From: Flectonema sp. DT1601
Taxonomy: Eukaryota
Reading direction: 5' to 3'
Assembly (NCBI GenBank): GCA_964019425.1
Contig: OZ025782.1
Span: 868,001 to 932,000, forward strand
Length of the DNA stretch: 64,000 bases
In this document: one piece after another, positions 15,185 through 64,000 of the stretch
How the letters are laid out: the number at the start of each line of letters is the position of its first letter
Numbering within the stretch: position 1 is the stretch's first letter
Program-made: the position numbers and the translations under genes
The notes under the pieces: generated by a model
What the model was told of the DNA's origin: nothing
Databases searched by the model: none
Seen by the model: the letters and a program-made list of their open reading frames with translations, nothing else

Positions 15185-15325
15185 CGCCACATTTAGAACC
15201 TTTGTTGTTACAGAGTTCGTTGTGTCAGTCAATTATAGTAACTGCTACTGTAAAGATATAAGGGGAATAATGTTACCGGGTTATTATGTTTTCCAGATTG
15301 TTTAATCTTCACAAGAACTAAAACT

Positions 15326-16036
15326 ATGGGTAAGATTGGACACAGCATTGTTGGAGTCCTCAGCATTATTGTGGTTGTGTTTTGTGCATGCGTGCTGACT
15401 GACGGCCGGAGTATTGTAACTATTAGAACAGACACAAGGAGGATTCCGGTCAATCTTAATGGCGCTAACACGAATCTTGTCGTTCAGGAATTACCAGGAA
15501 TTGGATATCCTTACGGAATTGGTGTTTACCAGGACTCCAATGGAAGGAGTTGGGACGAGGGAGATGATTTTGCGGAATTAATTAACAGTACTTCTGGAGA
15601 ACTCGCACGTCGCTCTTCGCACATCACGCAGCTCTTTGGATGTGATGACCACCAGAAGAGAGGTCAACTTGTACTTGCTGCTGTATTCATGTGCCTCATT
15701 TCCTCTACCGTGGCTGTGATCGCGAGTTTAAGAGGGGTTGCTGCCGGAGGTAGAATCTCTGGAATTGTCTCCATTGCTTTCCAGATTTTTAACTTTGTTT
15801 TCTTCCTCATTGGTATGGCTGCTGGAGCATCCTTTTACAACGAAGAGTTTGAGTGTAAATCTGACAATACCATCGTATTTGACCTCAAAGTAGCTGACTA
15901 CTTCGACCTCAGCTACGCTCTTCCGTTTCTTGTTGTTGGTATCATTGTATCAATAATTAATATTGTAGTATTGTGCGCAAGCAGAAGTTTAGAAGCAGCA
16001 GAAAAGAACGCACCTGACGACAGCGAAAGCTGTTAA
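15326..16036 (+). CDS. Amastin/claudin-like four-TM surface protein
   Basis: N-terminal TM, a large extracellular loop with a Cys, then three TMs ending FDLSYALPFLVVGIIVSIINIVVL, resembling the amastin last helix. Confidence 0.6.
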   Translation: MGKIGHSIVGVLSIIVVVFCACVLTDGRSIVTIRTDTRRIPVNLNGANTNLVVQELPGIGYPYGIGVYQDSNGRSWDEGDDFAELINSTSGELARRSSHITQLFGCDDHQKRGQLVLAAVFMCLISSTVAVIASLRGVAAGGRISGIVSIAFQIFNFVFFLIGMAAGASFYNEEFECKSDNTIVFDLKVADYFDLSYALPFLVVGIIVSIINIVVLCASRSLEAAEKNAPDDSESC

Positions 16037-28151: not shown

Positions 28152-28335
28152 CAATTTGACTTGACAGCATTTCTTTCTCTGGTAGTTTATTTAAAGCATG
28201 CGATTTTGTGTACAGGATCCAGTTATAATGATTCATGTCTAATTTGTTTCGGGGGGTAAACCTGATCGGTCCGACCTTTTTTTGTATTGGTCACCGACAG
28301 CCCTTCGTTCAATAAAAAAACCAATCCACACACAG

Positions 28336-30225
28336 AAAAAACCCCGTGAAATCGTTGCGGATATTTTGAACAAAGTTAGTGAAGAAGACTTGCGGAAGAA
28401 ATTATCGAACCCTCATGTTCTTGTTTCTTCAACTGGATCGAAATGGGACTATCAAGAGAATGGGGGATTCAAAAAAGAGCTTTGTAAGACATTCGTTAAC
28501 AACCTAAATAAGTTTAACAGCAAGGAGAATTTAGATAAGAATAGCAGTCCTGTACCCCTTCTTGTTTGTGGCATTGGCGAGGGCAAGAGTCGGGCGCTTC
28601 AGGAAGCGCCGAAGATGCTGAAGAAACTGGCGGAAGATTCCAAGACATTCAGCCAAGTGTTGGTGTTCCAAGTAACCTTTGAGAATGGCACACCGGTGGA
28701 CAAGAAATTGAATACTCGTGAGCAAGTCCCACTGCGGATCCTTTACCACCTTTCTGATCAGACTATCAGTTATAGTCAATTCGAGATCGCTAATGGAAAT
28801 CAAGGGCTGACCCTTGGTGATGTACTGGATTACCTGGCAAAAGACAACGACAAGCCATCAGCTGTGTTACTGATGATTGATGGCGTGCATAACTTGGCTG
28901 GGAAACCCATGAAACTACCTGAAGACGACCCTCTCCGCATATTTCTTTGCAACGTTGTGAGCGGCGATTACATTTTGTGCCAACGTCGGAGGCATTTCAT
29001 CTTCCCGCTGTGTTCCTGCACTGCAAGTATTACGGCTATCGAAGCTCTAAAGCAATCCAGCACCGAGAAAGCATGGATTCCTCTGCCAAAGCTAATTACT
29101 GTCCCATTGGTAAACGGGAAACAAATCCGAATCACCCAGGAACAGCTCAGCGTCATGGGGGGACATGGCAGGGCCGTGGAGGTTTTGATGAATATCATTG
29201 CGAACAATACGGAGCAATCTATGACTGATATCCAACTCTACAGTGAAGTTGCTGAACAGCTGAGTTCGAATAAATCGGGATTCGGGGGATTCGAGTCTGA
29301 TCATGTGACCGCCTTATTAAAGGCCTGCTTCCTGAGAGATACGCTTATCCCAGGACGAGACGATGCTAACATTCCAGTTGGGGAGGACAAGCAGCTTCAT
29401 GTGAGTACCTTCACTCAGCATGGGCTTCTCAGAATTGAGAACCAGAAACTGATAATTGCACCGATCTGGTTACTCATGAATAAAAAGCAGAAAAACGGGC
29501 ACATTCTGCAAGGTTGGCAAGGGGCGACACCAGTTAGTGAAGTACAGTGGGAGCAGTTCGGGGCATGGTTCCGAATGTTTCTGTCGAGGGTACATAAGAA
29601 TGGTGGTGAGACTATGAGCCTCAAGGACTTCCACAAAGGGATGCTTTGGGCTGACGACTCCAACCCACCGACGTTCAATAATGTTCCAGTCACGCGTGTT
29701 CTACAAAGTAAATTCAAAATCTCAACGAAGAGCGAATCGAAGGCTGAGGAAATCAAAAAGGAGTCCCAGGCCGGTAGTTGGAATATCAAACTCGAGAGCA
29801 AGGAAGTTGACATCAAAGATGGAAAGTCCATTGTGATCAATGCAAAAGCTGCATCTGCAGGCGACAGCTTTATCCCTCTGACCAGCTCGCAGGGTGAAAT
29901 CTTCACTGAAGTCTATCAGCAGAAGTTGTATTTGAAGACCGTTTTTCTTAAGTCGGACGAAAAATTTCTGGATTTTGCTAAGTCGGAGATACATAAAGCA
30001 GTGGGGGATAACGATGTTCTGATATTCTCCACCCAGGCTGAGTTTCCCAGTAGCTGGAAATCTTTATTAAAAGGGAAACTCGTTGGACTTGTGCATCGTT
30101 CGAATTTCAATGATTACTTCGGACCGTTCGCTGCTTTCTGGCCGAGGAGTGAACTGAAGCCGCCAGCTGCAATGAAGCGGAAAGCATCCCACGAAGAATC
30201 CCAGCTCATCAAGAGGCCGAAGTAG
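28336..30225 (+). CDS. Crinkler/RHS-type P-loop NTPase plus restriction-endonuclease-fold protein (main exon)
   Basis: Walker A GIGEGKS, Walker B LLMIDG, GGHGRAVE, WEQFGAWFR and a PD-(D/E)xK-like NAKAASAGDSF...EVYQQK. Phase-0 acceptor CACAG| at 28335. Confidence 0.8.
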   Translation, partial: KKPREIVADILNKVSEEDLRKKLSNPHVLVSSTGSKWDYQENGGFKKELCKTFVNNLNKFNSKENLDKNSSPVPLLVCGIGEGKSRALQEAPKMLKKLAEDSKTFSQVLVFQVTFENGTPVDKKLNTREQVPLRILYHLSDQTISYSQFEIANGNQGLTLGDVLDYLAKDNDKPSAVLLMIDGVHNLAGKPMKLPEDDPLRIFLCNVVSGDYILCQRRRHFIFPLCSCTASITAIEALKQSSTEKAWIPLPKLITVPLVNGKQIRITQEQLSVMGGHGRAVEVLMNIIANNTEQSMTDIQLYSEVAEQLSSNKSGFGGFESDHVTALLKACFLRDTLIPGRDDANIPVGEDKQLHVSTFTQHGLLRIENQKLIIAPIWLLMNKKQKNGHILQGWQGATPVSEVQWEQFGAWFRMFLSRVHKNGGETMSLKDFHKGMLWADDSNPPTFNNVPVTRVLQSKFKISTKSESKAEEIKKESQAGSWNIKLESKEVDIKDGKSIVINAKAASAGDSFIPLTSSQGEIFTEVYQQKLYLKTVFLKSDEKFLDFAKSEIHKAVGDNDVLIFSTQAEFPSSWKSLLKGKLVGLVHRSNFNDYFGPFAAFWPRSELKPPAAMKRKASHEESQLIKRPK

Positions 30226-33160: not shown

Positions 33161-33683
33161 GAGAGAGAGTTCAGCTTCCTCTGAGCCGCAATTCCACCAC
33201 GCAACTCATCCAGATTGGATTTAGAATCACTGAAGACTCTTGTGATTCCAGATCTGGGACCCAAGACAGAGGTTGCTTTTCCAAATTCACTTATTAACAG
33301 CTTCAGAGTTACCTGTTCAGCTTTATAACTACTTTCCGTTGCAACAAGTCTCGATGCCATGGTCCGTTCACACGGCGTGATCTGCACTGCCGCTGCGCCT
33401 GCCGTGTAGTTGACAGGGTCGTGGGATCCGTCAACAAAAATGGACGAGGTACATGGCCTAAGTTCGCTGCAGTACTCCTCGAACTTAGCCTTGTCCACTT
33501 CAGCAACACCGGTCTTCGAATGTCCATATCTGCAAGATATCTCCAGGTTTGGAACATCTATCCATGGCTCGATGCTGTCAGGCATGACAATCCCCTGGAT
33601 CTCCATATTACGGTCCTCGGCCGGTAAAGTTGAACCCCAAGTTCCACTAGCGATTCCCTTCGTAGAAGGAACCCAATCCAGTG
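33161..33683 (-). repeat. 523-bp inverted copy of an internal segment (35053-35575, RNase H region) of the adjacent LINE
   Basis: ORF 33103-33606(-) translates almost identically to part of ORF 33681-36200(+) (MEIQGIVMPDSIEPWIDVPNLEISC...). Confidence 0.95.
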
Positions 33684-36430
33684 GTATTCAACGACTCCTG
33701 GCTCTCAGCTAGAGTTCCGAAGGTCTGGAAAGAGGGTATGATTAGACCGGTATACAAACCGGGTAAACCCAAAGAAAAGCTATCCAGCTACAGGCCGATC
33801 ACGTTGACATCTGTAGTCGGCAAAATGCTTGAACGGATAATTTACGACAGGCTAATGTATTGGTTGACGTCAAATAATGCCTTGTCCTCCATTCAGGCAG
33901 GTTTCAGAAGGGGTAGGAATACGTGCGAGCAAATCTCACTGCTGGTCAATGCGCTTCATGGTGCGAGAAAAAGTGGTAAGAGTTCAATTCTACTCTCTTT
34001 CGACTTCACTGAGGCATTTGATAGGATAAATCATGTTAAACTGATTGCTAAAATGGTGACGATGGGGATTCCTTCACCATTCATCGGATGGGTTGCTGAC
34101 TTTCTGACGCGAAGGAAAGCAAAGGTTAGTGTCAATGGCAATCTGAGCGCATACAGAACTGTGACGAAAGGTGTTCCGCAAGGGTCGATTGTTGGACCTC
34201 CCCTTTATCTGATATATGTCGACGGCCTGGCTAAGAAACTTGAGAAGACTGGATGTGTTTCAGCACTCTACGCAGACGACACAGCTTGTGTGGTCTCGAA
34301 TAAGGATTTTAAAGTAACTTACCGGATGGCGCAATTGGCCCTTGGGTTAGTAGATCGTTGGTGCAAAGATAATGACATGGCACTGTCGGTTTCGAAGACC
34401 TGCGGGATGCCGGTGGATTGTCCTAGGAATATGTATTGGAGACTGGGATTCCCCAGAACGTCAGGAGAGAACCTCTTTCGGATCAGTAGGGAGGAACTGG
34501 CTGGGATGATTCGGTCAAATGAAGAAGGTAGGCCATTACTTGGAAATGGGGCGATGATCCTCAAGCTGGGTGACACGGAGGTTACGAAGGCAAGTGAACC
34601 TCTTGAACTGATGCCAGTGGGACCGGATCCGACCTGGGTGAAGTTGCTGACTGCCGTACTCATGCCGACGGTGGATAGTGTAAAGTACTTGGGTGTCCAT
34701 ATTGACGATGACCTTACATATGGCACACAAGTGGATAAACCACTGGATGAGACGAGGAAGGGACTTGTACTGCTTCGAAAGTTGGAGCAATTCAACTTTG
34801 ATTTCAAAACGCTGAACATGATCAAGAACTTATACATCCTCTCAAGGATTCTGTATGGGCTTGAGAGCTATGGACCTTTCTTGACAGATGAACAGCTAAA
34901 ACCTATTGACCTGAATCTGAGGAAGATAGCTAGAAAGATCACCGGCTGCGGCTTCAACACAAGGTCCCTTCCGTTACTGTGGGAGGCGAACATACTCCCG
35001 ATGAGACTGCAGATTGAGAAGCAAGCCAGGATTGCTTTATTTAGGTATCGGTCACTGGATTGGGTTCCTTCTACGAAGGGAATCGCTAGTGGAACTTGGA
35101 GTTCAACTTTACCGGCCGAGGACCGAAATATGGAGATCCAGGGGATTGTCATGCCTGACAGCATCGAGCCATGGATAGATGTTCCAAACCTGGAGATATC
35201 TTGCGGATATGGACATTCGAAGACCGGTGTTGCTGAAGTGGACAAGGCTAAGTTCGAGGAGTACTGCAGCGAACTTAGGCCATGTACCTCGTCCATTTTT
35301 GTTGACGGATCCCACGACCCTGTCAACTACACGGCAGGCGCAGCGGCAGTGCAGATCACGCCGTGTGAACGGACCATGGCATCGAGACTAGTTGCAACGG
35401 AAAGTAGTTATAAAGCTGAACAGGTAACCCTGAATCTGTTAATAAGTGAATTTGGAAAAGCAACCTCTGTCTTGGGTCCCAGATCTGGAATCACGAGAGT
35501 CTTCAGTGATTCTAAATCCAATCTGGATGAGCTGCGTGGTGGAATTGCGGCTCAGAGGAAGCTGAACTCTCTCTCGATACTAGAAGGGATAAGAAAATTA
35601 GACTCATTCGTTCACCTTCAATTCATCCCAGCTCACGTGGGAATTGAACCGCATGACAAGGCAGATGAACTGGCGAAAAAGATTTCAAAAGATGTTAAGA
35701 GCAAGCCGGTGTCAACGACTATGGACTTCTTCGCACATAAGTCAAGGATAGTGAGGGAAGCTAACAGAAAGCTGTTTGGTAAGATTATGGAGGGTTCAGC
35801 AAGGGCGAAACCACCGATCAAACGGGTGATGCTTAGGCAGTATCTTGATGCTACCGGAGGCCTGAGAGCGGCTCGATACCCCAAGGACATGCTGAGAGAA
35901 TCAGAGATAAGGATAGCCAGGTTCAGAACGGGCTCTCACCCCCTGCTCAGGGTAAATGAACTACCGATAAAGTGCCCCTTCTGCAAAAGAACAGACTCTT
36001 CTGCCAGACATCTAATATTTGATTGCGAGGATGGTGACGTGGTCCGCATTAGAGAAGGAACAATAAGATCAAACATTCAGGAAGCGAGAATCTCCGAGAC
36101 CAAACTAAATCTTTCAATAATGTTTGCGACGAGAAATCTTCACGCCCTAGCCGGCTACTTATGGCATTTGGGGCAACGAACAGGCTTATCAAACTGTTAA
36201 CTGATTGGTAGTTGCTAATTCATTAGTATCATTCTCCCTTATCACACTCCTTAATCATCTCCTAATTTCTCTGAGGACATCCGCAGAGCTTCATGGCTCG
36301 TAGGTAACCCAGTGGTCTTTGGCCACCGTCCCTGTACTGATCCTTCGCTTTATATTAACTGTGTCTTGAGATTCCTATCCGGGGAAGTCCTCCAACGGAC
36401 TCAGGTCAGTTGCGCTTGTTTTTACTTATA
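33681..36430 (+). mobile_element. Non-LTR retrotransposon A (ingi/I-group-like; RT-RNase H-CCHC), 5'-truncated; ORF 33681-36200
   Basis: RT motifs YRPITLTS, QAGFRRGR, DFTEAFDRI, GVPQGS, YADD, KYLG; RNase H FVDGS, FSDSKS, FIPAHVGIEPHDKADELAK; C-terminal CPFC...HLIFDC. Confidence 0.95.
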
Positions 36431-36536: not shown

Positions 36537-36760
36537 TCATCTCCTGGTTGGGTAACTACACATCACCTTCGGTGTTGTCGCAGTGTCTCTTCCAACACTC
36601 CTGTCTCCTTTTTCTCCTATTCTCCTTTTAAATTTCTCTTGAGGGCAGGCCTTCGGGCTGTTCAAGTGGTCTTTGACCACCGCTCTAGTTATATGCTCGA
36701 TTCTTTGTTTTTCCTTATCGATGGTAGGAATGGTAACCGAATTAGCTTCATGTGTCCAAT
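36537..36760 (+). repeat. 5' copy of the terminal direct repeat of element B
   Basis: Near-identical to 42354-42576 (tcatctcctggttgggtaact...gcttcatgtgtccaat). Confidence 0.95.
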
Positions 36761-38381
36761 AAACCTCCTGAAGATAGTGGGAGAAGACGGGATCCCGGAG
36801 CAAGAGAAGGAAAGAAGGGTGGCAAATCTCCTAATGGAGATCGTTCAATTCGTAGCTGGGTCAGAAGGTGGGAACCCGGAGATGAAGAGGAGGACACCGG
36901 ACACACTCGATGGGAGTGGTGGGACGGAAGCGACCGCGACGACGGCAGCAGAAGCGACGACACCCTCAACTACAGGTGTCAACCAACCAACTACAGGAGC
37001 ATCTACAGCTTCTAATCAACAAACGAGTACGAAGCCGTTCTCATTGCCGATACCGACAGCAATGAAGGACAATCAAACCACGAAGGGAAAGGCAAAAGCA
37101 AGCTACCCGGAGTGGCACATTCACGGTGCGTGGGCAGGCGCTGTGGCCACCATCAGTTACGACGTAGCAGCTAATGCTACAAACAACCTTACCTCTGGTC
37201 TTGTTTTAGTTCGTTCGAAGCTAGACTTAGAAGCACCCCGCCAAACAAAGAAGAGCGGCCGTTGGGCTGCTATCAGCAAAATCCCGCTCACAAAGAGCAC
37301 CGTTCCAGTAGCATTACCGGTGATAAAAAAGGGTGGCGTCTGCGAGATCAGGCGCGTATTTTACACGCATGTATTTGGTGACGACTTTTCTAAAGCAGCA
37401 ACTAGCCACCAGATTCCAACTCCCAACCCAGTTCTATTCATCCAAGACTGGGGAAAATCAGCTGAGAAAGAATTGACCGTCAAAACGACCGATATTCTAA
37501 AGAAATTGAAGATAAAGGCGGACCCCTTTAGCTACAGAAAGAACGAGTCCCACACCTCGATGGCTTTCAGAGTCCCCAGAAACCAAGTACACGAGGTTCT
37601 GGAATACAACAACAGCGAACCCGAAACTGACAAACCCAAGAATGTCTCTTTCAGAAACCCGAGTTGGTCGAACGGAAGTGACGTTTGGCCAACGTTGCAA
37701 TTCAAAAACGACCTTGGCTTCCTGGCAGCGAAGTCCAAGACTTCTGCACTTGATGAATTCAAAGGAAAATTCTACATGTGCAGGTTTAAAAGCTGTTTTG
37801 GACTCCGAGTCCACCCTGACTGTAATATCAGGGTCAGCATTAAGCTCAACGCGGCAATCAAGCCTGCACTGCCCTCGGGCGACAGGTTTGTTATAAATTC
37901 GATGGCGATTCGTAAGTACTCGACAGCGCAGATCAGCGACTTCTTGAAGTCCCCACACAACTGGGAACACACAGTTGTTGCTTCTTTCCATAAAGGAGGG
38001 AGTACTACAATTGTTGCAATTGCGAAATCTCAACCGCCCAACTTCGTAAGCATAGGTACTAATGAATACCTTGTGATAAACAAAGAAGTTAAACGAACTG
38101 ACAGAAAACCGCTAGGCCCAACCTACAACCCAGGCGACGCGGCTCAAAAACTAACGGGAACCCTGAAGAGACAAAAAACAACTCCTCAACCACAACAGCC
38201 AACTCAGCAGCCGACATCAGCACCAACACCAGCGCCAGCACCATCAGCACCAACACCAACGCCAGCACCAGCAACAGCACAAACAACAACACCGCCCACC
38301 GAATCTGCTGCTAAGCAGGATAGTGATAAAAACCGTGACGTAGAAATGGAAAGTAACGATTCGGACTTTGATCTCAACTGA
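36750..38381 (+). CDS. ORF1 of retrotransposon B (start codon uncertain)
   Basis: Long open frame upstream of the APE with T/P/A-rich termini. It ends at TGA in the same frame as ORF2. Confidence 0.75.
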   Translation: MCPINLLKIVGEDGIPEQEKERRVANLLMEIVQFVAGSEGGNPEMKRRTPDTLDGSGGTEATATTAAEATTPSTTGVNQPTTGASTASNQQTSTKPFSLPIPTAMKDNQTTKGKAKASYPEWHIHGAWAGAVATISYDVAANATNNLTSGLVLVRSKLDLEAPRQTKKSGRWAAISKIPLTKSTVPVALPVIKKGGVCEIRRVFYTHVFGDDFSKAATSHQIPTPNPVLFIQDWGKSAEKELTVKTTDILKKLKIKADPFSYRKNESHTSMAFRVPRNQVHEVLEYNNSEPETDKPKNVSFRNPSWSNGSDVWPTLQFKNDLGFLAAKSKTSALDEFKGKFYMCRFKSCFGLRVHPDCNIRVSIKLNAAIKPALPSGDRFVINSMAIRKYSTAQISDFLKSPHNWEHTVVASFHKGGSTTIVAIAKSQPPNFVSIGTNEYLVINKEVKRTDRKPLGPTYNPGDAAQKLTGTLKRQKTTPQPQQPTQQPTSAPTPAPAPSAPTPTPAPATAQTTTPPTESAAKQDSDKNRDVEMESNDSDFDLN

Positions 38382-41300
38382 CTAGATGACGATGAGGATG
38401 AACTCAGTCCGACCAACTCACTTGTGGAAAAGGATACGGCTCGTGAACTGCTGCTAAAGGCAGGCGACGTCGAACGCAACCCTGGCCCTGACAACTCTCT
38501 CATATCTCTACTGAGCTGGAACTGTCGATCGATGGGGAACAAAGGCGCTTATATTCACAAGCTGCTTAATGCCTATGCGCCTGACGTACTGTGCCTACAG
38601 GAGACTTGGACGAATGATGTAATTTCGCACACGGACTATTTCACCTATCGGAATGATAGGGCAACACGAGGTGGAGGGGTTATTTCTATGGTGAAAAAAT
38701 GCCACACTCAGCAGCGTTTGAACATGGAGCTTCCGCCACACTTAAATGATGTCGAGGTCGTGAAGGTCAACATAGGTGGAAAGATTGACATCATCAATGT
38801 TTATGCTCCCCCGGGATGCATGATCAGAGAGTCAGATCTTCCAGTCTCAACGAAAGCAATCGTCGCGGGTGACTTTAATGCCCATCATCCGGTGTGGTCA
38901 CTTAAATCGACGAGAGCAGGTTCAACTCTACATGCATGGGCAGCTCAAAATGATCTACTGGTTGCTAACAAGATGGGGTCAATCACAAGGCCTTTTCCTG
39001 ACGTCCCGGGGGGTGGTACCTCGCCAGATGTAGTATTCTTTTCAAACTCGATGGTTCTTGAAGAATTTAGTGCAATTGAAGAAGATAATAAACATGGGTC
39101 AGATCATCGACCTCTCTACACCGTACTGGATCCCATGTGCCAACTTGCACGGGCCACGATAGGTTCGAAGAAACGCGTTGTATGGGACTTCAAGTCTACG
39201 GACTGGAACTGCTTTGGGACCATGCTCGAAAAGAGAATTAGAAAATCAAGACTCTCCGATGATGCAACTGCGAATGCCAAGCTCTTTAACAACATACTGC
39301 ATGAAGTGGCGGCTAAATTCATTCGTCGACGTCTCCTTTTCAAAGGGAAACGGAGACGAAAGTGGAAGACGTCAACCCCTGATTCTACCAAATCGAAGGG
39401 TGCCCACCTACGTGATCAACTTGACAAGGGTAACAACTTTGCCTTTGCGTTTAAGAAGATCAAAGAACTGCAGCAAGATGCTGGTAAAGATATCAGTGTC
39501 AACAACATCTCTGACTGCGATCTACCATCAGCATTCTTGGACCTGTTTGTCTCGAAATCGGAAATATTATCGCTAGAGGCCCCCGCACTCTCAGAAGGTG
39601 ATAATGAAATAGATATTTGCTGTGATTTCACAATGGCTGAAATTAAAGCTGCGATTAAGAACCTGAAGACCCGCAAGGCTGCAGGACCTGATGGAGTTCA
39701 CAATGAGATGATCAAAAACTTCACTCCGGCAACAGTGGAATACCTCTTGAGAATTATTAACACTTCCTGGAAGACTTCAAAAGTACCGTACCAATGGAAA
39801 CAGGGACTAATCAAGCCCATGTTCAAGGCAGGGAAACCTCGTAATGAACTAAAGAGTTTCAGACCAATAACACTCACCTCGGTTGTTGGGAAACTTGCGG
39901 AGAGGCTCGTGTATGACCGACTCATGCACTGGCTCACAAAACATTCGTCGCTCAGCCCACTACAGGCTGGATTCAGAAAGGGGAGAAATACCTGCGAGCA
40001 GATCACCGTTCTAGTAGATGCTATCGTAAGGAGCCACATGGAAGAAAAGAGATCAGTGTTCTTGTCATTCGACTTTACTGCTGCGTTTGACAGGATCAAC
40101 CATAAGATACTTTTATTAAAATTAGTAAAGATGGGTGTTCCGAATGTTATTATCAGATGGATCACAGACTTTCTTACAAACAGGAAGGTTAGAGTTGAAG
40201 CGAATGGGTATTTTAGCGAATTCCGTACTCTGGCTAAGGGTTTCCCAGGGATCGATCCTGGGTCCTCTTCTCTATCTTATCTACGTTGATGACCTCTGCA
40301 AGATTTTGGAACTAGAGAAGGAAACAACGACGTCTGCTCTGTATGCGGATGACACAGCATGTGTGGTGTCAGGATCAAACATGGAAGAAGCTCTTTCGAA
40401 TGCTCAGTTAGTACTCGACAAAGTGGATCAATGGTGTTTTGAAAACGACATGGCCTTATCAGTCTCCAAAACCTGTGCGCTTAAGATGAATGTTCGCTCG
40501 AAGGGCATAGTACTAAACGATACGTGTAATCGCGAACTGCTTTTCTCTAGATCTGTTGAGGAACGCATGCTTAAACTTGACTATGGTGACATCGAGAAGC
40601 ATATCAATCTCAAATCACCCAGACCCATGCTTCAAAGTGGCGAAACTATTCTTGAAATTGGAGGAATCCCAATCAAGACACAAGAAGAACTCGACAACTT
40701 GATGCTGCAATACGTCGTTCGTGAGGACAGCATTATGGCTGTGAGAACAATATTCAAAACTGCCTTTCTGTTACCGATAGTCGACTCAGTAAAATACCTC
40801 GGGGTTCACATCGACGACAGGCTCACCTTCCACAAACAAGTAGGCAAGATTCACGAAGAATTAAAGAGGGGGATATCACTTCTGCAGTGCCTCCAGCCGT
40901 ACGAACTGGACTACAAGACTCTTAACATGGTTAAGAACCTTTATGTAACCGCGAGAATCTCGTATGCGCTTGACAGTTTTGGTTGGCTGATAAGCAGCAG
41001 CGTTGACAGCATCGACTTCGAACTGAGGAAGGTCGCCAGACTGGTTACTGGATGCAGCAAGTGTACGCCAAGAGAGTTACTGTTGTGGGAGTCTGACATG
41101 TATCCTTTTAAACGTCAGATTGAAAAGCAGACAAAAATTGCGTACTACCGGTATAAAGCCATGACTTGGATACCTAATACAAACAGACTCGCCTCAACAC
41201 AAAGCTACTGGGCTGGCCTAATCCCTGGCACTGATAGTCAGCGTGAAAGCCAGTGCCTTGTGCAGCCTGACTCGATGGAACCCTGGGTATCTCCGACGAA

Positions 41301-42243
41301 CCTTAGGATTAGCAACAGCTGCGGATTTCCGAAGTCCGCGAACCCTGCGGTGGACAAAGAAAAGTTCATGTCGTACATTGGAACGTTGCCTCCTGTCGAC
41401 ATGGTAATCAACTGCGATGGCTCCTACTCTGCTTCCGGCGCGGCCGGTGCGGCTCATATTGCCAAGTCACGTAGCGGCCTTCGATCTGCTTACGCGTCTA
41501 GGCTTTATCAAGCTGACTGCAGCTACAGGGCTGAACAACATGCTCTGAAGAACGCGGCTAGACATCTGAGAACAGTGTTTAGCAAAGATCGTTCAATGAA
41601 ATCTGTGAGGATATTCACGGACTCAAAATCCCTTCTGGATGAACTGCTGGGTGGAAGGTGCAGACAGAGGAATACCGAGTCCCTCAAGATACTGGAATAC
41701 CTGCGCATGTGTGAGATGAAAGTGCATTTGCAATTCATCCCCTCGCACATTGGAATCGAGTTTCACGATGAAGTTGACGCGCTTGCAAAGGAAGCAGCGC
41801 ACAACAAGAACATCCGACCTGTGCTAGTCAAAGGCACGTACTTCTCGCGATCATCACATGTGAAGCGCTGCATCAAAAAGGATCTGCTTAACGTGAGTGG
41901 TTACACCTGCTACAAACACCTCATCAGAGGCCGTTCCGTTAAATACCCTCCTGGGATGGAAAGAGCCGACGAGATACGGATAGCGAACTTCCGGACAGGA
42001 TGTCACCCGCTAATTCAGAACTGGCGCAAGACGATCGACTGCCCATTTTGTGGCGAACCGTCCTCACAGGTTCACCTGCTGCAGGGATGTCAATCTCCCA
42101 AACTCGACTCTGCCAGGTTCAAAATCCTGGGCTTCTCAACACTGACCGGCAAGGGGATCGCGATCGAGAACTTATTATTGCCAACGAAATTCCTAACCTT
42201 GAAGCTCTCTTCACTTTGGCATGGTTTCCATCACTCGCGTTGA
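38382..42243 (+). pseudogene. ORF2 of retrotransposon B (2A-APE-RT-RNH) with one frameshift near 40240
   Basis: LLLKAGDVERNPGP precedes the APE. The KGVPQGSILGP motif is split between ORFs 38424-40289 and 40135-42243. Confidence 0.9.
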
Positions 42244-42353: not shown

Positions 42354-42576
42354 TCATCTCCTGGTTGGGTAACTGCACATCACCTTCGGTGTTGTCGCAG
42401 TGTCTCATCCAACACTCCTGTCTCCTTCTTCTCCTATTCTCCTTATAAATTTCTCTTGAGGGCAGGCCTTCAGGCTGTTCAAGTGGTCTTTGACCTCCGC
42501 TCTAGTTATATGCTCGATTCTTTGTTTTCCTTATCGATGGTAGGAATGGTAACCGAATTAGCTTCATGTGTCCAAT
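42354..42576 (+). repeat. 3' copy of the terminal direct repeat of element B (3' UTR)
   Basis: Near-identical to 36537-36760. Confidence 0.95.
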
Positions 42577-42823: not shown

Positions 42824-42862
42824 AACCAACGATTCTAAAGCTACAGTTTCTGTACTTTATTG
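42824..42862 (+). other. Complete 39-nt spliced-leader exon fused to a protein-coding sequence (retroposed mRNA 5' end)
   Basis: AACCAACGATTCTAAAGCTACAGTTTCTGTACTTTATTG; the 3' part CAGTTTCTGTACTTTATTG is the conserved kinetoplastid/diplonemid SL end. It is not followed by the SL intron or preceded by the SL-gene upstream sequence. Confidence 0.95.
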
Positions 42863-42874
42863 GGACCACACAAA

Positions 42875-44505
42875 ATGACTCCACGCGGCGGTCTCGGACG
42901 GCTGCGGCCGACAAAAAATTGTAGGGATGAAGCAAGAGGACGACCAGCTAACCGGACGCTCTCTAGCAAACAAAGGAACAAGCTTGCTCACACGATCAAC
43001 GGAAATGGGCCTAAGATAGAAGAAAGGGAAAGGCTGGACCGAGACAACACCCGGGTAGACCGGGGAGAAACAAGGAAGAAACCGGCGGAGAGGAGACTCA
43101 AGAAGCAGCAAGAGGACCAGGAGGAAGAGAGGAAGGAGCTGCTCAGCAAACATGAGCTCCTTGAAGCACAACAAAAGAAGCTGGACGAGCAGCACAGGCA
43201 GCAACAATTAGATCTCTTTCAGGAAAAGCTCCAACTGGAACAAGACTTGGAGGATCACAAGAATCAGCAAGTGGAGAAACAACAACTACTGGAACAACAA
43301 CACCAGCAGCAGCAGCTTGAGCTTCACCAAACGAAGCATCAGATGCAACAGGAACTGGAGAACCAACAACAACAACAGCATGAAAAGCAACAACAGCAGC
43401 AACAGCAACTTGACCATCAAGCCCAACAGCAGCAGGAAATTCAACAGCAGCAGCAACAGCAACTTGATCATCAAGTCCAACAACAGCATCTAAACCATCA
43501 ACAGAGCCAAGAAACTATTTAACCAACAACAGCAAGAATTGCTTAAGTTCAAGGCAGACCTCCAACAAAAACAGGAGATAATCCTGAACCAACAGCAGCA
43601 ACTCGAACAGCAGCACAGCAAGGAGAAGGATATCGAGAGAGAGTCTCTCCGCAGGAGAAGATGTCAACTCGAGGAAGACCACCGTCAACAGCAACTTGAA
43701 CAGTCCAGGATTCAACAGGAACTGCAACTGCAACAGACAAGCCTGGAGGAAAAACAGCATCTGCTACAACAGCAATTTAATGTGGAATTGGAAAAGGGTA
43801 AACTGGAGTTACTGGACTTACAGCAACAACTGGAGAAGAAAAACCAGGAAGGTTTGAAGGAGCAGGAGGTGGCTCTACAGCTTAAACAACGGCTGCTTAT
43901 CGAACAGCACAACAAGGAGAAGGATGACGGGAAGCAGGAGTTATTGGTCCTGCAACAGCAACTAAGCGAGCAACGTCTGCATGATCAGCAGCAACAGCAA
44001 CAGAGAAGCGAGGAGTTAAAGAAGCAAGAAGAAGACCTCGAACTTCAACGACTCCAACTGCAACGCCAGCAGGAGGATGAAATGGAGAAGGGCAGATATG
44101 AGCTCCAGAGTCTCAGGGACATGCTGGGTATGGAGTTTGAGGAACAGAAGACGTCACTAAAAATCCAAGGGGATAATCTTCGCCATCAGCAACAACAGCT
44201 CCAGCAACAACAGCAAATCTTCCAAGAAAAAGAAGAACGATTGGATCAGCACTACGTACACCAGCCTTATGCCACCGACACCAACCCCCACTACCAACTT
44301 CCTCAAGACCCCCGGTTTGATGAACTTCAGAGGGAGCTACGTCAGGAACGGGCCGAGAAAGGAGAACTTAGGGAGCTGCTGAGATCTCTTCAACACCAAC
44401 TGAAGGAAATGACGCAAGAACTTAACTTGCAGAGAATGGAAGCTCAGGAGCAGAGGGAGGCTGCCAAGAAAGAGTCACTGGGAATGCAAGCCCGCTACCT
44501 GCAGG
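42875..44505 (+). pseudogene. SL-capped processed copy of a Gln/Glu-rich coiled-coil gene, frameshift near 43515
   Basis: ATG at 42875, 12 nt after the SL. The Q/E-rich ORFs 42860-43522 and 43539-44519 are joined by a 1-nt insertion (gaaacta versus gaacta in the inverted copy). Confidence 0.85.
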
Positions 44506-59317: not shown

Positions 59318-62300
59318 TTAGTTAGTTAGTTAGTTAGTTATTTAATCCAACGTTACTGTATATTATGAGTGCTAGGTAACTCACAGTAACAGAGGACCCA
59401 ATCCTTAGCCATATCCGAAGATTTCGCATGGATTGTTGAAGTAGCATCGACTGAAAGATTAATAAATACCAATCTCCAGCTTTCCGCCTCGCCTAGCTTA
59501 TTAAACTATCGAACTAAAAAAAAAATAAAAAATAAAAAAAATATAAAATAAAATAAAATAAAATAAACAAAAAAAAAATTAATAATAAATAAATAAAAAT
59601 CATCAAAATTAAAACGGGATAGAACAATTACACTGATAATATACTAAAGCACTCGTAGAGCATTAACAATTAACGCTAGGTTGGCAGCAGCCATTTATTT
59701 GAATCGAACCACACTGGATCGATCCGAGTAAATTTAGAAGACCTTATCTTCTCCAGGAATGAGTTAAAATGTTGGTTTTTGTTTTTATCCGAATTCAAGA
59801 AACAGTATAACTCCAAGTCCCACAAATGGTCGTAGACTTTTTCGATTTCATTTGCGTTATAAACTTCTGAGATCAGTTTTCTGACTTCCTCCTTACACTT
59901 CGAATCAAGTGTGGTAACAGTGGAATGAACGGACAAATATTTGACAAGACGTTGTCGAGGGACCGCTCGACGTAACGGGAAGCTGTCGTGTAGGCTCCTG
60001 AGGTCATTCAAGAGCGATATGAGAGCCAATTGGTTTTCAGTAGCAAAAAACTTGTGTAGATGTTGACCCACATCCTCATCTTGATCATTAAATACCATCT
60101 GTGGGAAGTGAATTTGAACAAACATCTTAGTCTCCGGACATTTCGATAGTAAATGGTGAGTATCTGTATCTCTTTTATTACAGAAGAGACAGTTTGATAA
60201 TCCCTTTCTTGGTTGCTTCACAAGCGGATGGTGTCCAGTCCTGAGGCGGGCGATTTGCATTTCTCCCTCACGGTTAAGATCCGGGTGGAAGCGTTGAGCA
60301 CCTCTGCCCATTGTCGATAAAGAGTGCACATGTGATGTACTGCGCTGCTCGTACCAGTTTCTTCGGATTTTATTATTCACTGAACATTGGGTCATCCTGT
60401 AGTCAAACTTGACCACTGTTAAGGGAATAGCAGAAGCCGCTGCTTTGTTGGCGAGAGAATCGGCCATTTCATTTCCGATGATCCCACAGTGTGAGGGGAC
60501 AAATTGTAGGGTGATCGGACGCTGGAGCAGCGATATTCTCCTAAATAATTCGGCATTAGTCGCTGAATGTTGCTTCAGATGTCCACGCTCAAGACTTCGA
60601 AGTGCTGACTGACTATCCGTGATTATATTAATCCTCCCACTTGGCAGGCAAGACGAATACTTTTCAATCAAATTCACTGCTGATAACAGAGCCTGTTGCT
60701 CGGCATTATAAATCATCAGAGATGGGTCGTAACGATGTATTTCTTTGATGCATCTCTTTCCAAAGATTAAAACTGCTGCATTACCACAATGGTAGTTACT
60801 TTCTTTATCTTGGAAGTAGGATGCATCTGTATACAGCGAGGCCACTGACTTTGGGAGGGTCTTAATTTTTCCAAGTGCAGCTAACAAATTCTTGCATGGG
60901 TCCATGGACTTACGGAAATCTGCCCAGGAATTGATAATAACATCCGGGGGTGGTCCCCAAGGAGTCTGGTGATGCGGTAGGCAGAGCATTGATCTTTCAT
61001 TAGGGGTCACATAAGTCTTGGCATGGGGTTCTGCGTAGAGTTTCCACGAGCTAGACTTTTCAGGGTGAACCAACGACCGAGTCGGGCAATCGTCTGGGAG
61101 CCTCAGGAAACGTTCGTAGGATAAAGCCACGACTTTAGCCACGTGTAGTTTGAACGGGGGAATACTAGATTCTACCGATAATGCAGTTGAGGAGGTCGAT
61201 TTGGAGCATCCCGTCAGTCTTAGTTGAAGTGAACGAAGTGTATTCTCAATAAGTTTCAAAGAATTCTGCTTGATATAGGGTGCATAAGAAGCTAGTCCGT
61301 AATAGGCCCTAGAGAGGATCAGCCCATAGATTGTTTGTCGGAGAACTTCCGTTTTGATTTTAAAAGATGAAACTATCGAAATCAAGCCGATTCCCCGCTT
61401 TAGGGTATTTGATAGGTGAGCTAACTGCGATGTAAAAGATAAATCATCGTCGATAATTATGCCTAGATACCGCGACTGCGACACACGCCTTAGAGGGATT
61501 GCAGCCTTTAGAACGAAAGAACCCTTTGGCGTCCTTTGTGAAAGTTGAGAGCGGGTCTCAAGGTAGTTACCATTAATTGCAAGTGGGTATACCGGTCCTG
61601 TTTTGAAATTGAGCAGAGCTGCGGCACCATCATCCTGATGTATCCTGATGAAGTCGGCAGAGCCACGGGGAAGGTCGATATCGTCCACCGTAGAGGGAAA
61701 ATAAAGTCTTGGAAGTCTACAAATACTTCTGTCTGAGAAACGTCCTCCGAATGCCAAAAATTCAGTCTTGTTCAGAGAGAGGGACATTGCTGAATCAGCG
61801 AGCCAGTTCTCCACTTGTCCTATGGCATTGTTCGCCTTGGATTCCAAATCACTAACCGAAGAGCCACTAACAAACACTGTCAAGTCATCCGCGTATAACA
61901 GCTTTAAATCGGCTGTGATGGCATCCGGTAGGGAGTTCACGTACACACGGAATAAGAGCGGTCCTAGAATACTGCCTTGTGGGACCCCCTTTTTGCAAGA
62001 AATCGGGCCTGTACGGTTATGGCCGTGGAGAAGATGCGCTACTCGGTCCGAGAGGAAATTACCAATCCACCTTACATAAGGGACTGGGATGAGTGTTGTA
62101 AGCCTACTCATTAGAATATGGTGATCCACATTATCAAACGCACCCGAGATATCGAAGAAAATCATCGTTGCACATTTCTCATAATTGTTTTTAACTTCAG
62201 CTGCAGCTTCGATCATAACGGCTATATTTTCCTCCGCTGACCTACCAGGAACAAACCCAGATTGTTTAGGGTCTAGTTTAGAAATCAGCAGATGTTCTAA

Positions 62301-64000
62301 TCTAAAATGGACAAGGGATTCAATGAATTTAGCAACTACTGAGGTCAATGAGATAGGACGATAGGAGGCGGCATCAGTCGGGTCCTTTTTGCTACCTTTT
62401 AGAATAGGGAGAACATGTGCTACTTTCAAACATTTCGGGAAGGTTCCTCTCTGGAAAGACCAGTTTGCAATACGTAGGAGAACTTCCTTAGCCATATCTC
62501 CAAAATGATAAATCATGTTGTTACTTATAGAATCCGGACCGGAGCCGTCAGACTTTTTCAAAGAATTAAAAACTGCTTGGGCCTCTGCCATTGTAAAAGG
62601 AGAGCAACTGGGTTCTGAAAAATCCACCTTTGAAGTATGCGGAATAAGCAAGGGACGATTGTCAGAAGAATCAGGGAAAAAGCGACGTTTGAGCGCTCCG
62701 ACGTTCACCTGCGGGGTCTCAATAACCGTTGACTCTCCTTTCAGTTCTCGTAATTTCTTATAAGTCCAGCTAAAGCCCTTCTTACAACCGTCGATTAGAA
62801 TAAGTTCAGGGTCCAAATGGCGATGTTTGCGTTTAACCCGGAAAGATTCTTTGTGCCACTTATTTGGAAGAGTATCAATCGCAACAGATTCTATTGTTCG
62901 AACAAAACTGTCACAGAGTTTATTTAAAGATCGTATCCTTTTAAGTCTAAAACAATGGGAGTCAAGTTGTGCGGAGAAGGAGGACCAATGAGATTCCGTA
63001 AAACTGTTTTTGAACCATATACGATGAGCCGGAATAGCTACCGGTACAGTGAGGGGAGTCACATTAAAATCTGCAACAATTGGGGTATGATCGGAATTAA
63101 CTTGCCCAGCATCAATCTGCAGCGAACGCAGACACTTGAACTGCGGCGAGTGCAATAATAAATCGGGCGTTGTACCATGAGCAGGAATAGAAGGAGCCAG
63201 AGGTTCAATAGCTAATCCATTATTTATAATCCATTCATTTACTATCCTTCCTGAAGAGACGCACCCCTTAGGAATTCGACGCGACCAAGATTCATGATGT
63301 GCATTGAAATCACCTACTGCTAGATCCCCCAAAAACATAGAAGAGGGCAGCTGGCACACCTTCGGTGGGATGTAAATATTAAAAGTTCTAAATATGCCCA
63401 TGGAAGTCGAGAAACTGCAATGGATAACCTCAACAGCGGATGGATGCTTACCTACTTCTAATTGGACCGTACCAAGAGACTTTTTGAAATAAGAAAGAAG
63501 TCCACCGCCTCCCATTTTAGAAGAGTCGCACCTATCACGGCGGAATAATGAATATCCTGTAATACCAAGTTGATCATCGGTTACGTCTGCTTTCAACCAA
63601 GTTTCCTGGAGGTGGATAATATCAGGGTCGTGAGCTTCGATAATAGCATCGAGATGTGAACGCGATGTTTTATAAGCTCTCATATTCCATGAGAGTACCC
63701 TAAGAGGCCCAGGATTAGGGTGGATCCCTGAGCGTAAGAGGTTAATACGGGCTGTTACTGTTTCATGAAATATGTTGTCAGGAATGGGAGCGATTGATTG
63801 CTACTGGGCTGACTGGTTGTGCTTCAGTTGAGCCGCCATATCAGCGTGAGAGTTGGCCCGAGGGCGCTGGTCGGTGGAATCTCTACCGCTGCGGCGTTCG
63901 CGATCTTTGTTGGATTTACCCAGTTTATCTCTAAGTTTCTGATTTGCTTCTTTCTCCGCGGCCAGTTCCCTTCGTAATCCATCTATGGTAAGGTTGAGCG
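59318..64000 (-). mobile_element. Non-LTR retrotransposon C (ORF1 3' end, 2A-like motif, APE-RT-RNase H); 5' end beyond the window
   Basis: Intact ORF2 to 59676 with SWNMRA, LQETW, GDFNAHH, SDHTP, GVPQGSILGP, YADD, YTDAS, FVPSHCGIIGNEMAD and CLFC...HLLSKC. Candidate (TAAC)n tail at ~59318-59341. Confidence 0.93.
59676..63800 (-). CDS. ORF2 of retrotransposon C, including the ATG-less N-terminal linker and GIHPNPGP motif
   Basis: The frame is open from the TAG at 63803-63801. The first ATG (63683) lies inside the conserved APE motif SWNM, so it is unlikely to be the start. Confidence 0.88.
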   Translation of the reverse strand, partial: QSIAPIPDNIFHETVTARINLLRSGIHPNPGPLRVLSWNMRAYKTSRSHLDAIIEAHDPDIIHLQETWLKADVTDDQLGITGYSLFRRDRCDSSKMGGGGLLSYFKKSLGTVQLEVGKHPSAVEVIHCSFSTSMGIFRTFNIYIPPKVCQLPSSMFLGDLAVGDFNAHHESWSRRIPKGCVSSGRIVNEWIINNGLAIEPLAPSIPAHGTTPDLLLHSPQFKCLRSLQIDAGQVNSDHTPIVADFNVTPLTVPVAIPAHRIWFKNSFTESHWSSFSAQLDSHCFRLKRIRSLNKLCDSFVRTIESVAIDTLPNKWHKESFRVKRKHRHLDPELILIDGCKKGFSWTYKKLRELKGESTVIETPQVNVGALKRRFFPDSSDNRPLLIPHTSKVDFSEPSCSPFTMAEAQAVFNSLKKSDGSGPDSISNNMIYHFGDMAKEVLLRIANWSFQRGTFPKCLKVAHVLPILKGSKKDPTDAASYRPISLTSVVAKFIESLVHFRLEHLLISKLDPKQSGFVPGRSAEENIAVMIEAAAEVKNNYEKCATMIFFDISGAFDNVDHHILMSRLTTLIPVPYVRWIGNFLSDRVAHLLHGHNRTGPISCKKGVPQGSILGPLLFRVYVNSLPDAITADLKLLYADDLTVFVSGSSVSDLESKANNAIGQVENWLADSAMSLSLNKTEFLAFGGRFSDRSICRLPRLYFPSTVDDIDLPRGSADFIRIHQDDGAAALLNFKTGPVYPLAINGNYLETRSQLSQRTPKGSFVLKAAIPLRRVSQSRYLGIIIDDDLSFTSQLAHLSNTLKRGIGLISIVSSFKIKTEVLRQTIYGLILSRAYYGLASYAPYIKQNSLKLIENTLRSLQLRLTGCSKSTSSTALSVESSIPPFKLHVAKVVALSYERFLRLPDDCPTRSLVHPEKSSSWKLYAEPHAKTYVTPNERSMLCLPHHQTPWGPPPDVIINSWADFRKSMDPCKNLLAALGKIKTLPKSVASLYTDASYFQDKESNYHCGNAAVLIFGKRCIKEIHRYDPSLMIYNAEQQALLSAVNLIEKYSSCLPSGRINIITDSQSALRSLERGHLKQHSATNAELFRRISLLQRPITLQFVPSHCGIIGNEMADSLANKAAASAIPLTVVKFDYRMTQCSVNNKIRRNWYEQRSTSHVHSLSTMGRGAQRFHPDLNREGEMQIARLRTGHHPLVKQPRKGLSNCLFCNKRDTDTHHLLSKCPETKMFVQIHFPQMVFNDQDEDVGQHLHKFFATENQLALISLLNDLRSLHDSFPLRRAVPRQRLVKYLSVHSTVTTLDSKCKEEVRKLISEVYNANEIEKVYDHLWDLELYCFLNSDKNKNQHFNSFLEKIRSSKFTRIDPVWFDSNKWLLPT

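Follow-up and report, generated by a model that had tools for sequence, protein, structure and literature searches.

Introduction

A 2A peptide ahead of the APE endonuclease domain has been well described in retrotransposons, mostly in elements without a first open reading frame (ORF1) (PMC3708506, PMC3894237; published work is cited here from the accessible portions of each source). Most of the 2A-bearing APE elements (L1Tc/Ingi, Rex1, Crack, L2 and CR1) have no ORF1, the Ingi clade apparently without exception, and the named ORF1-bearing exceptions are CR1-26_BF, CR1-53_BF and CR1-1_LG. How ORF2 is translated from the bicistronic RNA of a long interspersed nuclear element (LINE) is a long-standing open question in the same two papers. 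Here, we analyzed a 64,000-nucleotide stretch of contig OZ025782.1 (assembly GCA_964019425.1, positions 868,001 to 932,000 of the forward strand), hereafter the window, which contains two LINE families, C and B. These families differ from the described 2A-bearing elements in having an ORF1 of 550-570 amino acids in frame with ORF2, one intervening stop codon in a leaky context, and no in-frame AUG ahead of the 2A-like peptide.

Readthrough of an ORF1 stop has been proposed for non-LTR Group 3 of Paramecium tetraurelia (PMC5405496). Those elements belong to a separate ciliate clade with a zinc-finger ORF1, and their accessible description includes neither a 2A peptide nor such a motif, nor an assay. 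The accessible text of PMC3708506 does not propose readthrough (no match to 'readthrough' or 'read-through'). Viral type I readthrough (tobamovirus, Providence virus), with the consensus UAG-CAR-YYA (PMC3542737), and type II or cellular readthrough, for which UGA-CUAG gave 1.3-17% in human cells (PMC5868278), show exactly the 3' contexts found in C and B, with a polymerase downstream. Their products stay fused, whereas the 2A of C and B would cut the fusion 31-35 codons later, and no 3' stem-loop was found in C or B. The 2A peptides of Providence virus lie elsewhere in its genome.

SART1 and mammalian L1 resemble C and B in their bicistronic ORF1/ORF2 RNA and low ORF2p output, and the rat L1 ORFs are separated by in-frame stops. 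L1 differs in having two in-frame stops within a spacer of ~60 nt and SART1 in its overlapping UAAUG; each of the two has an AUG for ORF2, and the accessible accounts describe no 2A. In Cordylochernes scorpioides, as in C and B, 2A-like sequence lies between ORF1p and ORF2p domains, with two 2A peptides reported there (PMC13405545). This arrangement occurs within single annotated proteins, with no stop codon mentioned in the accessible text, whereas C and B add a leaky stop. The literature searched, with Repbase and most subscription papers outside it, yielded no retroelement with readthrough and StopGo in tandem, and the listings searched showed no test of the leakiness of these contexts in euglenozoans. 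2A peptides in LINEs and proposed LINE readthrough are already known, and what is new is the combination of the two recoding devices.

Results

Element C lies on the minus strand and runs off the window edge, from which the last 65 codons of its ORF1 (63804..63998) form an open frame. This ORF1 tail reads ...LRRELAAEKEANQKL...KHNQSAQ and is followed by TAG (63803-63801) and CAA TCA, a match to the type I consensus (63795..63803). The linker (63705..63800) comprises 31 sense codons, counted from the start of the CAA TCA context to the Gly of GIHPNPG/P (the slash marks the predicted skip site), and ends in the 2A-like sequence HETVTARINLLRSGIHPNPG/P, whose Pro codon is at 63707-63705. It contains no in-frame ATG, GTG or TTG. 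ORF2, taken from the predicted skip-site Pro (59676..63707), begins with LRVLSWNM after the skip site and encodes an intact APE domain (residues 36-238), reverse transcriptase (RT; 471-683) and RNase H (988-1121), with Pfam matches to PF03372/PF14529, PF00078 and PF00075, all above curated cut-offs. The stop-free frame beyond the TAG is 1374 codons long, to 59679. The first in-frame ATG is at 63683, just 3' of the conserved APE WN motif and hence past the 2A. We take the Asn of this motif to be an active-site residue, from what is known of the L1 endonuclease. C thus combines UAG-CAR-YYA, read in the window copy alone, with a conserved in-frame downstream ORF. The first-pass annotation, made from the letters alone, had described this layout accurately. 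It had also called the linker ATG-free, which is true of the reading frame; out of frame, an ATG occurs at +35 nt (MKQ and then a stop). Downstream of ORF2, at 59516-59608, the element strand is T-rich (A-rich on the plus strand) and is not poly(A).

Element B lies on the plus strand. Its ORF1 (36693..38378), which in this copy lacks the family's first ~12 codons, ends in TGA followed by CTAG (38379..38385), the UGA-CUAG readthrough motif and, as TGA CTA G, an instance of the type II pattern UGA-CUA/CGG. The subsequent linker (38382..38489) has 35 codons and no in-frame ATG and ends in a canonical 2A, GDVERNPG/P; it contains one GTG at codon 15 and three out-of-frame ATGs at +5, +11 and +17 nt. 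ORF2 (38487..42243) encodes APE, RT and an RNase H-like region, with one frameshift in this copy near 40200-40290, and the full-length family B protein P0109 has APE and RT by Pfam. Across the six frames of the window, NPGP-type motifs occur twice, at the C and B junctions. The earlier claim that two divergent families place different textbook contexts 31-35 codons before NPG/P was borne out: the distance is 31 codons in C and 35 in B, the ORF2s are 28% identical, and each stop codon differs and stands in its own context. Since C and B differ in both stop codon and motif, at least one change of signal occurred.

We judged other copies from protein clusters, in which the presence of a stop is visible and its identity and context are not. 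Full-length C ORF1 in other copies is 569-573 amino acids long. In the C ORF1 cluster (7 contigs), four of six members end at KHNQSAQ, another departs from that sequence three residues short of its end, and the last is a 5' fragment. The C ORF2 cluster has 15 members, the longest at most 1335 amino acids; the four full-length members (7 contigs) have Met40 as their called start and match the window copy at 99-100% identity. For B, 13 of the 15 ORF1 members listed (20 in all; ~552 amino acids) end at DFDLN, an ending shared by a ~90% identical subfamily, and the 15 ORF2 members listed (101 in all, 40 read) reach at most 1289 amino acids, those retaining the APE start being called from Met51 or GTG. 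ORF1-ORF2 fusions of 1850-1950 amino acids were absent among the members listed within the length ranges searched. The stop is thus fixed in both families. Both are dispersed, with 15-101 cluster members on many contigs, in addition to a 5'-truncated copy of a third family, A. B, with no in-frame AUG in its linker, has the largest cluster. With C intact and identity among its full-length copies at 99-100%, its AUG-less form appears to have been mobile recently.

The contexts are rare in the surrounding DNA. Counted over both strands of the window, CARYYA or CUAG follows 25 of 6121 stop triplets (0.41%), and with UGA-CUA/CGG added the count rises to 62 of 6121 (1.0%). Among the 28 ORFs of at least 200 codons, such a context ends the B ORF1 alone and none of the other 27, which include antisense shadows and ends at introns or frameshifts. 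The chance of two out of two junctions is ~2e-5 (strict) to 1e-4 (broad), a post hoc figure for families that share an ancestor. No X XXY YYZ slippery site was found near either junction. Two simpler accounts of the stops were rejected. A reassigned stop codon does not fit, as C ORF2 uses 43 Gln and 18 Trp codons and is free of in-frame stops, and each of the three stops terminates some of the long host ORFs; a nonsense mutation in one copy does not fit an ORF1 end common to family members on several contigs. The junction is therefore real, family-wide and statistically unusual, and the first-pass preference for selection over chance is backed by the 25/6121 background, the family-wide stop position and the conserved AUG-less linker.

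We next placed the elements in a quick maximum-likelihood tree of the RT region (30 rows). C grouped with sister families D and E, and B with F, A and two proteins of Flectonema neradi; these nine rows share one branch (SH-aLRT 100). F. neradi, a diplonemid, is the sole named close relative, so the host is likely a diplonemid as well; a search with a host NOT1 fragment did not place it. Shared lengths of the longest contigs suggest one assembly as the source of families A-F. C and D are 58% identical overall, with 2 of 11 linker residues matching at positions 1-11 and 20 of 21 at positions 12-32. Only 1 of 1321 downstream 21-residue windows reaches 20 identities between C and D. Because the C 2A-like peptide lies 5' of the first AUG and is near-identical in D, it is likely translated and under strong selection; being conserved yet AUG-less, the C linker must be entered by ribosomes that did not start at an AUG within it. 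In families A and E and in the F. neradi protein P0087, the called start falls within APE or at its beginning, which suggests AUG-less linkers there too. P0087 is called from a Met where C has the skip-site Pro (MLRILSWN vs. PLRVLSWN), and this Met could be an NPG/M StopGo variant or a plain start codon.

By domain content, C and B are APE-type LINEs whose ORF2 resembles that of Ingi/L1Tc, with a 2A at the ORF2 N-terminus before APE and an RNase H; the RT tree held no named Ingi. We did not file them in Ingi/L1Tc because the single-ORF feature of that group fails, ORF1 being 569 amino acids in C and ~552 in B. Rfam at gathering thresholds gave no match in the window; the 5' end of C, where an Ingi/L1Tc element would carry a Pr77/HDV-like ribozyme, lies outside it, and that of B is missing. 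The two ORF1 proteins are remote homologues of each other (25% identity over 79 amino acids, E 2e-6) without a Pfam match, and their neighbors in the Atlas search carried no names. C ORF1 ends in a coiled-coil-like helix, and AlphaFold models of the ORF1s were unusable (pLDDT 39 and 31).

The first-pass annotation had doubted that GIHPNPGP, which lacks the D and E of the classical motif, is active. This caveat now appears too pessimistic. One study widened the 2A core to (D/G/C/N)(V/I)ExNPGP and found G12 as common as D12 and H14 rare yet more than 95% active; its viral Dataset S1B lists GIHPNPGP ten times and GVHPNPGP five times (PMC12846837). In P2A, E14H was the sole tolerated change at D12, E14 and N16 (bioRxiv 10.64898/2026.09.24.754024). 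Judged by core or rare variants together with upstream leucines, both peptides belong to class A: B is canonical and C is a G12 type with the rare H14. C, D, B, F and Flectonema all retain NPGP together with the leucines ahead of it. To judge from its sequence, the C peptide is likely to skip. G[IV]HPNPGP before APE also recurs in LINE proteins unrelated to C (P0004, P0168, P0187 and P0255), and the G12/H14 variant is not rare among retrotransposons.

As a control, we searched for other 2A-APE elements with a degenerate pattern of a 2A followed by the first APE strand. It recovered both window junctions and 46 metagenome loci, of which 34 with an APE-like frame behind the motif were kept and 12 (frameshifted elements and chance matches) were dropped. 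Among the 31 kept loci with an upstream in-frame stop (~23 families), the leader contained an ATG in 30, and the upstream frame reached at least 200 codons in two, one of them a nonsense copy of another locus. In 12 of the 31, the in-frame stop directly precedes an ATG. These single-ORF elements have a hydrophobic leader of ~100 residues before the 2A. The clade of C and B itself was found in neither viral contigs (15 loci matched, with frames like stand-alone exonuclease III-type genes) nor prokaryote genomes (4 loci matched, none with APE behind the motif), and the metagenome scan held other LINE types only. One contig filed in a Gammaproteobacteria metagenome-assembled genome, likely a eukaryotic contig, has a canonical-looking 2A, DIEANPGP, before a coiled-coil-like protein, resembling the 2A-ORF1p arrangement of PMC13405545.

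The window has other features of note. Units of a 224-bp direct repeat (36537-36760 and 42354-42576, plus strand; 96.9% identical) lie on either side of the B copy, the upstream unit standing where the family's first ~12 ORF1 codons should be. At this length and divergence the repeat does not fit a typical target-site duplication; it could be an independent small repeat or have arisen by duplication long ago. Directly downstream of B, a 931-bp inverted duplication (42847-43777 on the plus strand and 45418-44506 on the minus; 96%) covers the 5' part of a Gln-rich, coiled-coil-like ORF without a Pfam match. The family A copy (33666..36200, plus strand), from a third family of the same clade, is 5'-truncated and lacks the junction. 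At its 5' end is a 523-bp inverted duplicate of an internal segment (33161-33683 vs. 35575-35053; 98.5%), resembling a 5'-inversion insertion structure. Further away, a 660-codon ORF (28243-30225, plus strand) with a P-loop-like GIGEGKS and no Pfam match looks like a divergent NTPase, and 15254-16036 (plus strand) matches amastin weakly, at E 1e-4 and short of the curated cut-off, as would suit a euglenozoan host.

Discussion

From the layout of the two junctions, we infer that readthrough sets the level of ORF2 and that StopGo then frees ORF2p, a reading to which we assign a probability of roughly 60%. Most ribosomes would stop at the end of ORF1, and a few percent would decode the leaky stop as sense, at UAG-CAA-UCA in C and UGA-CUAG in B. 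About 30 codons on, the predicted 2A/StopGo peptide would release the ORF1-plus-linker product, and translation would continue past the skip to yield a free ORF2p starting at Pro. Readthrough would thereby set a low ORF2p:ORF1p ratio, and StopGo would require neither a protease nor a start codon and would leave the endonuclease its whole first strand. The 2A would fix the ORF2p N-terminus whatever the entry route, and AUG-bearing relatives may use reinitiation. The broader picture, which we rate at about even odds from the sequences, is a natural tandem recoding cassette in a diplonemid LINE clade: a leaky stop and then StopGo within ~100 nt, with lineages switching between AUG reinitiation and readthrough and with two textbook signals reached separately.

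The first-pass reading of a selected leaky context in these junctions is supported; it left the main rival of readthrough unweighed. This rival is termination-reinitiation with StopGo, in which ribosomes would restart a few codons past the ORF1 stop, at AUG in D, F and the Flectonema element and at near-cognate codons in C (ATC, ATT, ATA) and B (GTG, ACG, CTG); the 2A would trim a short leader, and the leaky contexts would have arisen incidentally or play a minor part. For SART1 and L1, reinitiation is the accepted mechanism (PMC5972666, PMC10275272, PMC2241872). Several observations weigh against readthrough, and start codons in sister families 2-3 codons past the stop position speak for reinitiation. 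In family D, an in-frame Met, internal in P0002 and so a true ATG, precedes the skip site by 29 codons and aligns with codon +3 after the C stop, where C has ATC; the called start of family F lies 34 codons before the skip site, at codon +2 after the B stop, and may not be AUG, as the gene caller chose GTG or TTG for 5 of the 13 starts that could be mapped (2 of 15 were unmappable); and in F. neradi P0086 a Met precedes the skip site by 31 codons. ORF2 of L1 itself is reported to need no AUG. P0141, a decayed relative found with HMMER, runs from an ORF1-like tail through a Gln/Pro-rich ORF1-like segment in another frame to a 2A-APE, which takes one indel if the ORF1 and ORF2 of its family are offset and two if they are in frame; most simply, they are offset by one base, and a P0141 out of frame would favor reinitiation. 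Unrelated 2A-APE elements have their own AUG-led leader (30/31), and CARYYA or CUAG occurred at none of those 31 metagenome loci; one had UGA-CUA, directly before an ATG. The 12 dropped loci and 58 viral loci matched with a looser pattern had none of these contexts either, so the leaky-stop signal is neither a by-product of carrying a 2A nor a general rule. No stable RNA structure was found near either stop (6 local folds, z -1.36 to +0.57), including the 3' stem-loop that accompanies most, not all, type II sites (PMC3542737), for which B gave z +0.56 and +0.57 over 144 and 82 nt. In Tca2, an in-frame stop need not be read through by local context (PMC2194720), and the junction DNA of C and B comes from one copy of each. 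Even so, reinitiation leaves two different textbook contexts unexplained (~1e-4 or less); the out-of-frame AUGs between stop and 2A at +5, +11 and +17 in B and +35 in C would capture restarting ribosomes, so that scanning reinitiation would be diverted; and B, the largest cluster, has no in-frame AUG there. We therefore consider it possible, though rather unlikely, as the account of these junctions. Readthrough and reinitiation need not exclude each other across the clade, because, with a 2A in place, the product would be the same whichever way ribosomes reach the linker.

A different concern is that readthrough occurs and the C peptide skips poorly or stalls, giving mostly an ORF1-ORF2 fusion or a peptide that mainly lowers ORF2p abundance. 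C is non-canonical at positions 11, 12 and 14; it has Ser at position 11, and in GD-type peptides changes of G11 mostly abolish activity (bioRxiv 10.64898/2026.09.24.754024). G12 and H14 are each published as active, though the H14 peptide tested may have had another residue at position 12. One screen, moreover, assigned 59% of the 2A-like peptides associated with ORF2p to a 'reduction' class (PMC13405545). Poor skipping is nevertheless improbable given that NPGP and the upstream leucines are kept across families, that B is fully canonical, and that the G/H variant recurs in viruses and unrelated LINE proteins. ORF2 might instead be expressed from a processed or separate RNA, by cis- or trans-splicing at the AG of TAG/CTAG or from an internal promoter. 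Both motifs contain YAG, the host has canonical introns, and euglenozoans trans-splice. Tca2 has a junction promoter (PMC2194720). Yet the 40 nt before the AG of C are not T-rich (T 0.15, AT 0.45), compared with T 0.35 and AT 0.75 for one host intron and intermediate values for B (T 0.28, AT 0.62). A leader spliced at either AG would meet the out-of-frame AUGs first, and the members listed included no ORF1-ORF2 fusion of the kind that a spliced copy would leave on re-insertion. We regard RNA processing as very improbable.

If readthrough followed by StopGo operates at these junctions, it would meter and release a reverse transcriptase without a start codon or a protease, and the ~100-nt junction would be a compact cassette for making two separate proteins at a fixed, unequal ratio. 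Its predictions are sharp: an ORF1-linker protein with NPG at its C-terminus, an ORF2p whose first residue is Pro, and ORF2p output lost on a six-base change, with sister families that have or lack an AUG serving as natural controls. Such a mechanism runs counter to the published view of the 2A as a replacement for ORF1 in restraining ORF2. It would also indicate, from sequence, that euglenozoan ribosomes can read through UAG-CARYYA and UGA-CUAG.

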